DNA of 5,353 nucleotides, from the NCBI RefSeq assembly GCF_003334315.1, contig NZ_QOWR01000096.1. One strand, given 5' to 3'. Both the position numbers and the translations under genes were made by a program. The notes beneath the pieces were generated by a model. It was not told where the DNA came from. It saw only the letters and a program-made list of their open reading frames with translations, and did not search any database. This DNA is from Escherichia coli. Its GTDB lineage: Bacteria > Pseudomonadota > Gammaproteobacteria > Enterobacterales > Enterobacteriaceae. Positions within the stretch are counted from its first letter, which is position 1, and every line of letters begins with the position of its first letter. Below are positions 1 through 5,352 of this stretch, piece after piece.

Positions 1-75
1 TTATCGTGAGAGTAATTCATCGGCACGTTAAATCATATCAGGCGTAATACCACAACCCTTAAGTTAGCGCTTATG
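1..75. mobile_element. Terminal end of an IS186-like insertion sequence (IS4 family); partial, element continues left of the window, terminus at about position 75
   Basis: Reading the minus strand from position 75 gives CATAAGCGCTAACTTAAGGGTTGTGGTATTACGCC..., which I recognise from memory as the IS186 terminal inverted repeat (IS4-family ACTTAAGG-type end). As I recall, E. coli K-12 carries an IS186 copy immediately next to yfeA. Only one end is visible, so inverted-repeat pairing and target-site duplication cannot be checked here. Confidence 0.5.
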
Positions 76-103
76 GGATAATTCCCCGGTTTTTTTACGC
101 CTG

Positions 104-2293
104 TTAATCAGCTAATGGCTGCGGGCGACCAATCAAATACCCTTGCAGATATTGCACCCCGAGCTTATGCAATAGCGCCTGCTGCTGTTGCGTCTCGACA
201 AACTCCGCGACCACACTCAATGACTTCGCTTTCGCCAGATCGGTAATTGATCTCACAATCATCGCATCCAGCGTGTTCGTGACAATATCTTTCACAAAGA
301 CGCCATCAATTTTGATGATATCAGCCTGCAAACGCTTTAACCGTTCGTAGTTGGCATATCCGGTGCCAAAGTCATCAATCGCAATCCGGAAACCAAACTT
401 ATGCAGCTGCTCGATGTTGTACATGCTGCTTTCTGCGTTAGAAAACGCCTGCTCCTCGGTGATCTCAAGAATGACCGCCTGCGGGGAGATGTGATAACGC
501 TTAAACAGACGAATAATCCGCCCGGCAATATTCTTTTGCAGCAGCGTGAGCGGCATTAAATTGACTGAAAAGCGCGGTCCTTTTTTGTCGCAAGGGTGTG
601 TTGCCAGCCACTTCAACAAGGATTCCAGCACTTGCAAATCAAAACGCGCGCTAAGGTTAAACTGAGCAATAAGGGGCAGAAACTTATCCGGGGTCATAAT
701 GCCGCCGTCATATTTCAGTCGCGCGAGGATCTCATCATAACCTTCACCCTCTTTGTTGCGAATTGGCTGGGCGTAGAGCAGCAAATCACCCTGATCTAAC
801 GCCGTGCGAATGGTATTCAGCAATAGCACCTGTTTAGTGGTCTGCCCGGAAACCATCTCCTCTCTGCTATCCAGCGCCAGCACATGATGATGTGCGCAGG
901 ATTGCTCCGCCAGCCAGCTTAACTGCCCCAACAAGGGTTGCAGGGTTTCCTGATTTCCATCAAAACGCCCCCAGGCAGCACCATAGCCCATATCCAGCCC
1001 GGTATTGTTCCAGTGAATTTGCCGACTATTCAGGATGTTAACCATATGCTGGAGTCGCCCTTCCGTTTCCGGCCCGCTCAGCACTAACAGCAGTTCACTA
1101 CCCGGCAATTGATACAACTTTTCGTTTTCCTGCATCAACGGCAGCAGCGTACGGCAAATTGAGCGGATACAGTGAACGCGCATCATTAAGCCGTAATGAC
1201 GACTCATAAACTCAAGATTATCAATGCGCAGGCAGCAAAAACTCTTGCCCGCCTCTTGCTCCGGCGCTTGTTCCAACGCACGAAAGTTGGGTAGGAGCGT
1301 TAACGGATCTGTCAGCGCCTGCAAATGCCAGCGGCGATTAAGCCATTCACTGCGATGATAAATGCGCACCATATAGAGCAGGCAAACGCTAAAGGAAATC
1401 AGCACCGCAAGAATAAATGCCAGCGAATATTCGGTTTCCACCCCTTGCAAAAAGTTCTGGTTGTAATTCAGAAGGCAAAGCGTTGAAACAGCCCAGGTGA
1501 GATTTAAAAACGGATAGCGAAGCTTACCGACCCCGAGGGTAAAGATGATGAAGAAAACGGGTACCAGGTAACCGGCAATAAAGTCGTTTTCATAAGGTGT
1601 GCACAACAGAAGTAGCAGCACGCTTAACGCTGCCAGCCAGCTTAAGGTAAATGCGCGTTTCTCTTTGCCCAACGACGGAGCGATATCCCTGCGCCACAAT
1701 ATCTGCGCAAAGTGGGGACTTACAATCATGCGAGTGAGATAGTAGAAAAGCATGTTGTAAATCAGCACAGCGGTGAAAAGGCTTAGCAAATCAACGACCG
1801 TGAAAATGGCATCCGCATCGCCGAAAAAGGTGGATATCTTTAGCGGGAAATCAAAGAAGCTCCCCACAAGATACATGCTGCATTTGATGCCGATCGGCGT
1901 CACCAAACCAAGCCAGAACAGACGTTGCCAGACATATCGGCTGGTCAATCCATAACGCCAACGCGTCCCCAGCTGCCAGCGTAATATTGCGCAGGCACAC
2001 AACACGACAAACGTCTGGCTACCGAGCATGACCGCAGTCTGTAAAAAAGAGAGATGAAAGTTCCACAGATTGGTGCAAAACATCCCGCATAAAACGGGAA
2101 CGACACCGCGCCAGCCAAAGATAAACAAGATTGACAGCATTACGCACAGTGGCATCCACGCCAGAAAGATATAACTGGAATGGATAATGGCAAGTGGCGA
2201 AATAAAACGGGATAGCTGAATAAGTACCACGGTGAGCGTAAACGCTAGTGTGAATATCTTGATATTTTTTATCAGGTTATGCTCCACAAACAT
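104..2293 (-). CDS. pdeA: c-di-GMP phosphodiesterase PdeA (YfeA): N-terminal MASE1 membrane sensor domain, degenerate GGDEF domain, C-terminal EAL domain; 729 aa
   Basis: Single long minus-strand ORF ending in TAA at 104-106. The supplied ORF (104..2410) starts at a GTG; I place the start at the in-frame ATG at 2293 (MFVEHNLIKN...), which gives the 729 aa I remember for K-12 YfeA and begins directly with the hydrophobic multi-TM segment. A weak GAGAG Shine-Dalgarno-like element lies about 12 nt upstream. The C-terminal half carries EAL-domain signatures in the translation: YAQPI...EILARL, LEITEEQ, IDDFGTGYANY, KIDGVFV, EFVET. The GGDEF-equivalent position reads QLPGSEL, so the cyclase domain looks degenerate. 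Confidence 0.88.
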   Translation of the reverse strand: MFVEHNLIKNIKIFTLAFTLTVVLIQLSRFISPLAIIHSSYIFLAWMPLCVMLSILFIFGWRGVVPVLCGMFCTNLWNFHLSFLQTAVMLGSQTFVVLCACAILRWQLGTRWRYGLTSRYVWQRLFWLGLVTPIGIKCSMYLVGSFFDFPLKISTFFGDADAIFTVVDLLSLFTAVLIYNMLFYYLTRMIVSPHFAQILWRRDIAPSLGKEKRAFTLSWLAALSVLLLLLCTPYENDFIAGYLVPVFFIIFTLGVGKLRYPFLNLTWAVSTLCLLNYNQNFLQGVETEYSLAFILAVLISFSVCLLYMVRIYHRSEWLNRRWHLQALTDPLTLLPNFRALEQAPEQEAGKSFCCLRIDNLEFMSRHYGLMMRVHCIRSICRTLLPLMQENEKLYQLPGSELLLVLSGPETEGRLQHMVNILNSRQIHWNNTGLDMGYGAAWGRFDGNQETLQPLLGQLSWLAEQSCAHHHVLALDSREEMVSGQTTKQVLLLNTIRTALDQGDLLLYAQPIRNKEGEGYDEILARLKYDGGIMTPDKFLPLIAQFNLSARFDLQVLESLLKWLATHPCDKKGPRFSVNLMPLTLLQKNIAGRIIRLFKRYHISPQAVILEITEEQAFSNAESSMYNIEQLHKFGFRIAIDDFGTGYANYERLKRLQADIIKIDGVFVKDIVTNTLDAMIVRSITDLAKAKSLSVVAEFVETQQQQALLHKLGVQYLQGYLIGRPQPLAD

Positions 2294-2466: not shown

Positions 2467-2492
2467 AAAAAACCCCCGCTTTGCAGCGAGGG
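2467..2492 (-). terminator. Rho-independent terminator of the tRNA-Ala transcription unit
   Basis: Minus strand reads CCCTCGCT-GCAA-AGCGGGGG followed by TTTTTTG: an 8-bp GC-rich stem (one G-U pair), 4-nt loop and 6-T tract, starting 9 nt after the tRNA 3' CCA. Confidence 0.75.
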
Positions 2493-2501
2493 TTGGAAAT
2501 T

Positions 2502-2577
<76 letters not shown>

Positions 2578-2609: not shown

Positions 2610-2638
2610 ATCATATGAATTCCGCCCGAATGTGTCAA
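2610..2638 (-). promoter_or_regulatory. Promoter of the tRNA-Ala gene (-35 TTGACA, 17-nt spacer, -10 TATGAT, GC-rich discriminator)
   Basis: Minus strand reads TTGACA (plus 2633-2638), CATTCGGGCGGAATTCA, TATGAT (plus 2610-2615), then GCCGCCC. This is a consensus -35 with a 5/6 -10 and the GC-rich discriminator typical of stringently controlled stable-RNA promoters. The predicted start is roughly 20-25 nt upstream of the mature tRNA 5' end. Confidence 0.6.
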
Positions 2639-2757: not shown

Positions 2758-2812
2758 ATGAACTACTAATAGACCCACATACATTCAGGGAATTGTTATG
2801 TTCAAGGAGAGG

Positions 2813-3157
2813 ATGACACCAGATGAACTTGCCAGACTGACCGGCTATAGCCGCCAGACCATTAATAAATGGGTACGCAAGGAAGGCTGGACAACGTCAC
2901 CAAAACCTGGCGTCCAGGGTGGCAAAGCCCGACTGGTTCACGTCAATGAACAGGTTCGTGAATATATTCGCAATGCTGAACGTCCAGAAGGTCAGGGAGA
3001 AGCGCCTGCCCTTTCTGGTGATGCGCCGCTTGAAGTATTGCTGGTGACACTGGCGAAAGAGATGACGCCAGTTGAACAAAAACAGTTTACATCCTTGCTT
3101 CTGCGGGAAGGGATTATCGGATTGTTACAACGCTTAGGGATTCGCGATAGCAAATAA
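2813..3157 (+). CDS. yfeC: YfeC, small putative DNA-binding protein with an N-terminal excisionase/MerR-like winged HTH (DUF1323-type); 114 aa
   Basis: The supplied ORF is 2798..3157. I favour the internal ATG at 2813 (MTPDELARL...) because a strong Shine-Dalgarno AAGGAGAGG (2803-2811) sits directly upstream and it gives the 114-aa length I recall for K-12 YfeC; ATG 2798 remains possible. HTH signature ELARLTGYSRQTINKWVRKEGW. Stop TAA at 3155-3157. Confidence 0.82.
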   Translation: MTPDELARLTGYSRQTINKWVRKEGWTTSPKPGVQGGKARLVHVNEQVREYIRNAERPEGQGEAPALSGDAPLEVLLVTLAKEMTPVEQKQFTSLLLREGIIGLLQRLGIRDSK

Positions 3158-3158
3158 T

Positions 3159-3551
3159 ATGAAAAGATTACGCAATAAAATGACCACCGAAGAACTGGCT
3201 GAATGCCTCGGTGTGGCTAAACAAACTGTTAACCGTTGGATCAGAGAAAAAGGCTGGAAAACGGAAAAATTTCCCGGCGTGAAAGGCGGTCGTGCCAGAC
3301 TTATTCTGGTCGATACGCAAGTTTGCGAGTTTATTCAGAACACGCCAGCCTTCCATAACACACCAATGTTGATGGAAGCTGAAGAGAGAATTGCTGAATA
3401 CGCTCCTGGAGCACGCGCCCCGGCGTATCGACAAATCATCAACGCGATAGATAATATGACAGACATTGAGCAGGAAAAAGTCGCGCAATTTTTGTCACGT
3501 GAAGGAATTCGCAATTTCCTCGCCCGTCTCGATATTGACGAATCAGCATAA
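3159..3551 (+). CDS. yfeD: YfeD, paralog of YfeC; small putative DNA-binding protein with the same HTH type; 130 aa
   Basis: ORF starts at ATG 3159, 1 nt after the yfeC stop (TAAtATG), with no convincing independent Shine-Dalgarno, which suggests translational coupling. The N-terminus EELAECLGVAKQTVNRWIREKGW and C-terminus align with YfeC at about half of positions by eye. Stop TAA at 3549-3551. Confidence 0.85.
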   Translation: MKRLRNKMTTEELAECLGVAKQTVNRWIREKGWKTEKFPGVKGGRARLILVDTQVCEFIQNTPAFHNTPMLMEAEERIAEYAPGARAPAYRQIINAIDNMTDIEQEKVAQFLSREGIRNFLARLDIDESA

Positions 3552-3602: not shown

Positions 3603-5018
3603 TTACTGCTGATTTTCGCGTTCAGCAATAAAATCCAGCGCTTTGTTGATACGCTCGATACTGCGGGTCTTACCAATTGCGTGAACGGTAACATCCAGTG
3701 CTGGAGACTGCCCCGCACCGGTTACGGCGACACGCAGCGGCATACCAACTTTACCCATACCCACTTCCAGCTCATCCGCCGTCGCCTGAATAGCGTGATG
3801 AACGTTTTCAGCGGTCCAGTCAGTAATCGCGGCCAGTTTGTCACGAACCACTTCCAGCGGCTGACGCGCTACCGGACGCAGATGTTTTTTCGCGGCGTCG
3901 GCATCGAACTCAGCAAAATCTTCGTAGAAATAACGGCAGCTCTGTGCCATCTCTTTCAGCGTCTTGCAGCGTTCGCCCAGCAGTTTCACCAGATCAGCCA
4001 GCTGCGGGCCGTTACGGGTATCGATATTTTCCTGCTCAATGTGCCACTGTAAGTGAGTAGCAACATACTCCGGCGGCAGCGCGTTAATGTAGTGATGGTT
4101 CAGCCACAGCAGCTTGTCGGTGTTGAACGCACTGGCAGATTTGCTGACGGCATTCAAAGTGAAGTATTTGATCATCTCTTCACGAGTGAAGATTTCCTGA
4201 TCGCCGTGGGACCAGCCCAGACGCACCAGATAGTTCAGCAGTGCTTCTGGCAAATAACCGTCATCACGATACTGCATTACGCTGACTGCCCCGTGACGTT
4301 TGGACAGTTTTTTACCGTCATCGCCATTGATCATAGAAACGTGCGCGTAAACCGGCACCGGCGCTTTCAGGGCCTTAAGAATGTTGATCTGGCGTGGCGT
4401 GTTGTTGATATGGTCTTCGCCACGGATAACGTGGGTGATTTCCATATCCCAGTCATCGACAACCACACAGAAGTTATAGGTTGGGGAACCATCGGTACGG
4501 CGGATAATAAGATCGTCCAGTTCCTGGTTGCTGAACTCGATCGGACCACGGATCTGATCGTCAAAAACAACAGAACCTTCCTGCGGGTTAGCAAAACGTA
4601 CAACACACGGTTCATCATCAGCATGATGCTCATGGCTGTGGCGGCAGCGACCGTCATAACGCGGCTTCTCACCTTTCGCCATTTGCTCTTCGCGCAGCGC
4701 TTCCAGGCGCTCTTTAGAGCAATAGCATTTATAAGCAGTGCCCTCTTCCAGCATCTGATCGATCACCGCGTTGTAGCGATCAAAACGTTTGGTCTGGTAG
4801 TACGGACCTTCATCCCACTCCAGGCTCAGCCAGTTCATGCCATCCATAATGGCTTCGATAGCTTCCGGCGTGGAACGCTCAAGATCGGTGTCTTCAATAC
4901 GCAGCACGAACTCACCGCCGTGGTTACGTGCAAAAAGCCAGGAGTAAAGAGCAGTACGCGCGCCGCCAACGTGCAGATAGCCTGTTGGGCTTGGCGCGAA
5001 GCGAGTTTTGATTTTCAT
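3603..5018 (-). CDS. gltX: Glutamyl-tRNA synthetase (GluRS), class I aminoacyl-tRNA synthetase; 471 aa
   Basis: Translation begins [27 protein letters not shown] with the class I HIGH motif (HVGG), contains the KMSKS-type motif KLSKR, and has the zinc-binding CYC...CRH segment of E. coli GluRS. ATG at 5018 is preceded by Shine-Dalgarno TAAGG; stop TAA at 3603-3605. The length matches E. coli GltX as I recall it. Confidence 0.97.
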
Positions 5019-5276: not shown

Positions 5277-5352
5277 GGGTGATTAGCTCAGCTGGGAGAG
5301 CACCTCCCTTACAAGGAGGGGGTCGGCGGTTCGATCCCGTCATCACCCACCA
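5277..5352 (+). tRNA. valU: tRNA-Val (anticodon UAC), 76 nt with encoded CCA; first gene of the valU operon
   Basis: Sequence GGGTGATTAGCTCAGCTGGGAGAGCACCTCCCTTACAAGGAGGGGGTCGGCGGTTCGATCCCGTCATCACCCACCA. Acceptor stem GGGUGAU/AUCACCC, anticodon loop CUUACAA (anticodon UAC), GGTTCGATCC T-arm. It ends 1 nt before the window edge. Confidence 0.95.

Follow-up and report, generated by a model that had tools for sequence, protein, structure and literature searches.

Does the protein encoded by pdeA (yfeA) of Escherichia coli, in which an N-terminal MASE1 membrane domain is followed by a GGDEF-like and an EAL domain, synthesize cyclic di-GMP (c-di-GMP), hydrolyse it, or do neither? The question is raised by a 5353-base stretch of E. 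coli chromosome (contig NZ_QOWR01000096.1; the window, hereafter), whose pdeA product is 100% identical to PdeA/YfeA (b2395) of K-12 MG1655, with zero amino-acid differences. RefSeq names the identical or near-identical protein in conflicting ways, as a "bifunctional diguanylate cyclase/phosphodiesterase", a "sensor domain-containing phosphodiesterase" or a "putative cyclic di-GMP phosphodiesterase PdeA". An initial annotation of the window, made from the letters, had proposed a phosphodiesterase which carries a MASE1 membrane domain and whose GGDEF domain is not catalytic, and both our alignments and the literature on PdeA/YfeA support this proposal. We are highly confident that the gene is E. 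coli pdeA and that its product combines MASE1, a cyclase-dead GGDEF-like domain, most likely a relay, and an EAL domain with a complete active site, making it a predicted c-di-GMP phosphodiesterase; the phosphodiesterase assignment is based on the EAL sequence and on published Salmonella genetics. Architecture and residue states have already been published for this exact protein, so that nothing in them is new and the discovery value is small. The practical value lies in annotation, namely in the many RefSeq records named "bifunctional", a label which the sequence does not support.

Domain annotation with Pfam returned MASE1, a partial GGDEF match and EAL. While MASE1 and EAL are matched far beyond chance and over essentially the whole length of their profiles (Table 1), the GGDEF match covers residues 326-423 and positions 1-109 of the 161-position model at an E-value of 7.4e-4. 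As this score is weak and the match partial, the domain is measurably degenerate. In the NCBIfam scan no equivalog model scored over its cut-off and no dedicated PdeA model was found, the matches reflecting generic EAL similarity.

To evaluate the EAL domain, PdeA was aligned with the K-12 paralogues PdeL (YahA), PdeH (YhjH), PdeR, DosP and PdeF, with PdeK also included. The motif set recognised in the initial annotation is present in full: EILAR (residues 521-525), N578 within SVNL, EITE (610-613), DDFGTGY (640-646), KID (661-663), EFVE (697-700) and QGY (717-719). Every catalytic or substrate-contacting residue is kept in comparison with the E. coli phosphodiesterase paralogues. PdeA is canonical at Q509, E521, R525, N578, E610, T612, E613, D640, D641, K661, D663, E697, E700 and Q717; in each of these 14 columns it equals PdeL, PdeR, DosP and PdeF, and it equals PdeH except in three columns where PdeH itself departs. 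All of these residues are furthermore invariant in PdeF and in 25 orthologues taken from Citrobacter, Salmonella, Enterobacter, Lelliottia, Leclercia and Kosakonia. The criteria of Seshasayee 2010 comprise seven catalytic and four recognition residues with RocR as reference. Mapping the equivalent positions by motif, with RocR itself outside the alignment, we find all seven metal-binding or catalytic residues (E521, N578, E610, E613, D640, K661 and E697, corresponding to RocR E175, N233, E265, E268, D295, K316 and E352) and all four residues of c-di-GMP recognition (Q509, R525, D641 and D663, corresponding to RocR Q161, R179, D296 and D318). Loop 6 reads DFGTGYAN, compared to the consensus DFG(T/A)GYSS; its last two positions are off consensus in PdeA and likewise in PdeL (AT; DFGTGYAT), PdeH (AN; DFGTGMAN) and PdeF (AS). 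The EAL domain of the AlphaFold2 model superimposes in Foldseek on the MucR EAL domain with a TM score of 0.87-0.90 and a root-mean-square deviation of 2.0-2.5 Å, adopting a TIM-barrel-like fold, and the PdeA EAL domain is 30-35% identical to solved isolated EAL domains, which carry the same catalytic motifs.

The published record on PdeA/YfeA agrees with this assignment in several respects. For yfeA, Table 1 of Spurbeck 2012 lists a MASE1 domain and the EAL signatures EILR, QRDD, TE and ENEEDKEQ as all intact; Lacey 2013 describes the GGDEF domain of YfeA as catalytically inactive and its EAL domain as active, and Pfiffer 2019 classes both PdeA and PdeF as MASE1-GGDEFdeg-EAL proteins. In Salmonella, deletion of yfeA in a yhjH mutant worsens motility further, and YfeA/STM2410 is needed for the drop in c-di-GMP and in aggregation on external 5-oxoproline.

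Several points weigh against the phosphodiesterase reading or the relay that it includes. At A543 (window positions 665-667, minus strand) PdeA carries an alanine in place of the FxPxAE glutamate of PdeL, PdeK, PdeR, DosP, MucR and RbdA; the column holds Ala, occasionally Thr, in the orthologues, Thr in PdeH and His in PdeF. Since PdeH and PdeF also lack the glutamate, it is not strictly required, and we rejected the loss of an essential EAL residue, A543 being the sole departure and judged non-disqualifying. In E. coli CFT073, deletion of yfeA lowered biofilm formation, the opposite of what would naively be expected for the loss of a phosphodiesterase, and the defect was complemented by a foreign phosphodiesterase and a foreign diguanylate cyclase alike, so that the active domain is not assignable there. 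Our partial survey of the literature turned up no report of c-di-GMP hydrolysis measured in vitro with E. coli PdeA, and the K-12 RefSeq label for PdeA is still "putative". Finally, the inter-domain confidence of the AlphaFold2 model is low (pTM 0.47), which leaves the relay mechanism without structural support.

Taken further, some of these points would lead to a protein whose EAL domain is silent and serves as a c-di-GMP receptor or solely in protein-protein contacts, as in LapD, FimX, YdiV or CsrD, or to what is mainly a trigger enzyme with a c-di-GMP-independent MASE1 function as in YfgF. The phosphodiesterase role of E. coli PdeA does rest on sequence and Salmonella genetics, the CFT073 complementation is ambiguous, A543 departs from the usual glutamate, and the MASE1 domain of YfgF has a c-di-GMP-independent effect (Lacey 2013). 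We nevertheless consider this alternative improbable. The residues which are lost in degenerate EAL proteins are all kept in PdeA and invariant among its orthologues, and because all catalytic and metal-binding residues are retained, PdeA is not placed among the degenerate EAL receptors. Moreover, the Salmonella yfeA phenotypes agree with phosphodiesterase activity, and expression of E. coli YfeA did not give the aspartate phenotype of YfgF (Lacey 2013).

What, then, is the state of the GGDEF-like domain? The initial annotation had noted QLPGSEL in place of GG(D/E)EF, and this substitution is borne out at residues 395-401. The register that places PGSEL under GGDEF or GGEEF agrees in three independent comparisons (HMMER against RbdA; MAFFT against DgcZ, DosC and PdeR); in the HMMER alignment to Pseudomonas aeruginosa RbdA, "klyqlPGSELllvl" of PdeA lies under "tlarlGGDEFgill". 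A regular-expression search of the whole 729-residue protein detected no GG[DE]EF-like motif elsewhere. Compared to DgcZ, D165 is replaced by R356, K170 by E361, N173 by S364, D174 by R365, H178 by L369, D182 by V373 and R204 by Q395, and the motif G206-G207-E208-E209-F210 by P397-G398-S399-E400-L401. The RxxD I-site is likewise lost, with Q388-E-N-E391 at the place of R365-S-S-D368 in DosC. In sequence, then, the hallmarks of the diguanylate cyclase class are gone: replacements affect the motif, the aspartate that binds metal, the Lys, Asn and Asp in contact with GTP, and the RxxD I-site. With these metal, GTP and I-site residues gone, the domain would be left without means to bind metal or GTP, or c-di-GMP at the I-site. 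At the level of residues this argues against both cyclase activity and a role as GTP sensor.

The fold of the domain appears to be kept. The AlphaFold2 model displays the expected order of strands and helices and places PGSEL on a hairpin between strands 392-395 and 400-405, so that, as judged from the model and from its Foldseek alignments, which span both domains of tandem GGDEF-EAL structures, PdeA belongs to the GGDEF fold family only and not to the enzyme class. QLPGSEL is nearly unchanged among the orthologues, which are on average 62% identical to E. coli PdeA in the GGDEF-like domain, compared to 53% in MASE1 and 69% in the EAL domain. Conservation of sequence and fold in a dead domain speaks for a structural or relaying role. 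Most likely, as we infer, the GGDEF-like domain relays a signal structurally or helps the protein to dimerise, and does not sense nucleotides. Of the role "regulatory or structural" given in the initial annotation, the structural part is hence the more likely one, while regulation through nucleotide sensing is disfavoured by the loss of the GTP, metal and I-site residues.

A nucleotide-sensing role would follow the example of PdeA (CC3396) from Caulobacter, in which a degenerate GGDEF domain binds GTP in the manner of a sensor and allosterically activates the EAL domain. The overall arrangement of a degenerate GGDEF and an active EAL domain is the same in E. coli PdeA, and the conservation of its domain implies some function. 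Within the 11-residue A-site, however, ESRLVQPGSEL stands against the consensus KNDHDRGGDEF (Spurbeck 2012, Table 1), so that only one Gly and one Glu are kept, and hardly any of the residues through which active GGDEF domains contact GTP and metal remains. We therefore rejected a GTP-sensor role of the GGDEF-like domain on the residue evidence and regard it as very unlikely. That PdeA is bifunctional, its GGDEF domain being an active diguanylate cyclase as well, is suggested by the RefSeq records bearing this product name and by the existence of a Pfam GGDEF match, but it is barely conceivable: the motif reads PGSEL; the Arg preceding it, the Asp that binds metal and the Lys, Asn and Asp that contact GTP have all given way to other residues; the Pfam match scores weakly and spans only part of the profile; and when YfeA was left as the sole GGDEF protein of a Salmonella strain, no PGA was made, the synthesis of which is c-di-GMP-dependent.

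A cyclase-dead GGDEF-like module between a membrane domain and a complete EAL site is best accommodated by a signal-gated c-di-GMP phosphodiesterase, which is the best-supported mechanism. The N-terminal part of PdeA shows the properties of the MASE1 class, namely a full-length profile match and a polytopic helical N-terminus of about 300 residues with hydrophobic stretches. The AlphaFold2 model of the protein (mean pLDDT 79) contains ten helices within residues 7-326, which agrees with the ten transmembrane segments proposed for MASE1 (Pfiffer 2019). A predicted helix, 288-326, runs unbroken from the last membrane helix into the GGDEF-like module and may, as far as the model can be read in this way, act as a signal-transmitting stalk. 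MASE1, residing in the inner membrane with about ten helices, would take in a signal, and a conformational change would then be passed through helix 288-326 and the GGDEF-like module to the EAL domain, which would hydrolyse c-di-GMP to pGpG. Gating by MASE1 is the step in this scheme that we infer. In Foldseek about 420-440 columns of the model align to the tandem GGDEF-EAL crystal and cryo-EM structures of PA0575, MorA, RbdA, DosP and LapD. In the tandem structures of RbdA (PA0861), MorA, PA0575 and DosP the cytoplasmic half can be aligned and none reaches into the MASE1 region. RbdA differs from PdeA by having GGDEF at the place of PGSEL and, in its structure, a PAS domain upstream.

As to the nature of the signal, the initial annotation had called it unknown. 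This holds in so far as none is established for E. coli PdeA; it is partly out of date for MASE1 proteins at large, as the response of Salmonella to 5-oxoproline depends on YfeA and, in DgcE and YfgF, inputs or functions of the MASE1 domain have been reported (Lacey 2013, Pfiffer 2019). Salmonella YfeA (STM2410) resembles E. coli PdeA closely, sharing about 69% identity, the same length, PGSEL and the same EAL residues, whereas the 5-oxoproline-dependent reduction of c-di-GMP and the defect in gut colonisation, with an STM2410 mutant colonising the mouse cecum poorly, were shown there and not in E. coli. The authors of the 5-oxoproline study proposed that in Salmonella the compound is sensed, whether directly or indirectly, by MASE1. 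By analogy, external 5-oxoproline may be the signal of MASE1 in E. coli as well. We give a small but appreciable chance to the stronger possibilities that the conserved GGDEF-like domain docks another ligand or a partner protein or, separately, that external 5-oxoproline is sensed directly by MASE1 in the E. coli protein. Either would turn PdeA from a generic "putative PDE" into a defined ligand-gated phosphodiesterase.

The paralogue PdeF (YfgF) has the MASE1-GGDEFdeg-EAL architecture of PdeA. Where PdeA has PGSEL it carries another degenerate motif, SGNDL; it keeps every catalytic residue of the EAL domain, and the additional segment seen in the C-terminal half of the PdeA GGDEF-like domain occurs in PdeF too. 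The two proteins are 30% identical overall (MASE1 23%, GGDEF-like domain 27%, EAL 42%). Unlike PdeA, PdeF is induced anaerobically, and the effect of its MASE1 domain on the aspartate response is not reproduced by YfeA. Sarenko 2017 found PdeA to be heavily proteolysed and suggested PdeF as its replacement in anaerobiosis.

Table 1. Positions of genes, domains and other features in the window; residues refer to the 729-residue form of PdeA.
Feature	Residues	Window positions	Strand	Basis
IS186/IS421 copy, end portion		~1-97		
pdeA (yfeA) coding sequence	729 aa	104-2293	-	ORF list and RefSeq annotation with identical bounds
EAL domain	493-724	122-817	-	Pfam PF00563, E 2.7e-59, model 2-236 of 236 (full)
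Degenerate GGDEF-like domain	about 317-480	854-1345	-	Partial Pfam match, alignments, model fold
PGSEL	397-401	1091-1105	-	Aligned to GGDEF/GGEEF
Continuous helix, predicted	288-326	1316-1432	-	DSSP on AlphaFold2 model
MASE1 membrane domain	16-315	1349-2248	-	Pfam PF05231, E 3.9e-67, model 2-298 of 299
Small ORF within pdeA		596-799	+	ORF list; inside conserved coding gene
Small ORF within pdeA		1773-1955	+	ORF list; inside conserved coding gene
tRNA-Ala(GGC), one gene		2502-2577	-	
yfeC		2798-3157	+	
yfeD		3159-3551	+	
gltX		3603-5018	-	
tRNA-Val(UAC)		5277-5352	+	

A longer pdeA reading frame of 768 codons, starting from an upstream GTG at position 2410, was considered and rejected. The 729-residue form is preferred because the MASE1 profile begins at its residue 16, because the column of M1 is invariant and most orthologues have 727-732 residues, and because RefSeq and K-12 both annotate 729 residues. 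In addition, the extension adjoins, on the downstream side, the terminator-like hairpin of tRNA-Ala, which we counted against the GTG start.

The region is matched in all of the 5426 complete E. coli genomes of our collection, and 5421 of them carry the greater part of it at a single site. From base 53 on, the window is 100% identical to K-12 MG1655 except for one missing tRNA-Ala repeat unit, and b2395 shares with it the neighbours IS186, tRNA-Ala, yfeC, yfeD, gltX and tRNA-Val. Whereas K-12 MG1655 and E. coli C carry two tandem tRNA-Ala copies (alaX and alaW), a single one is located upstream of pdeA in the window, and a scan with Rfam detected only two tRNAs. The window is accordingly shorter than K-12 and E. 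coli C by exactly one 115-bp tRNA-Ala repeat unit and otherwise 100% identical; the single copy could be the result of a real recombinational collapse or of a collapse during assembly. A near-consensus sigma-70 promoter-like site (TTGACA-17-TATGAT, 11/12; positions 2610-2638, minus strand) is found upstream of tRNA-Ala, and a terminator-like 10-bp hairpin with a T-run (2471-2494, minus strand) lies directly downstream of it. As the two bracket the tRNA gene, pdeA should have its own promoter within about 2294-2470, an interval in which we identified none. On the other side of pdeA, its stop codon and the end of the IS186/IS421 copy are no more than about 10-25 bp apart, and bases 1-20 of the window overlap the coding sequence of the transposase, as in E. 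coli C. The insertion sequence is oriented opposite to IS186C, which occupies the same site in K-12 MG1655.

In some lineages pdeA is disrupted. An IS1 insertion in E. coli C21 splits the gene into a MASE1 and an EAL fragment; in Shigella flexneri a 440-residue fragment of PdeA consisting of MASE1 only is annotated, which belongs to a cluster of 314 member sequences, and a 445-residue EAL-only fragment forms another cluster. Among the neighbouring genes, the start of yfeC varies by annotation, giving 119 residues in the RefSeq record of E. coli C, as in the reading frame of the window, and 114 residues in K-12 MG1655.

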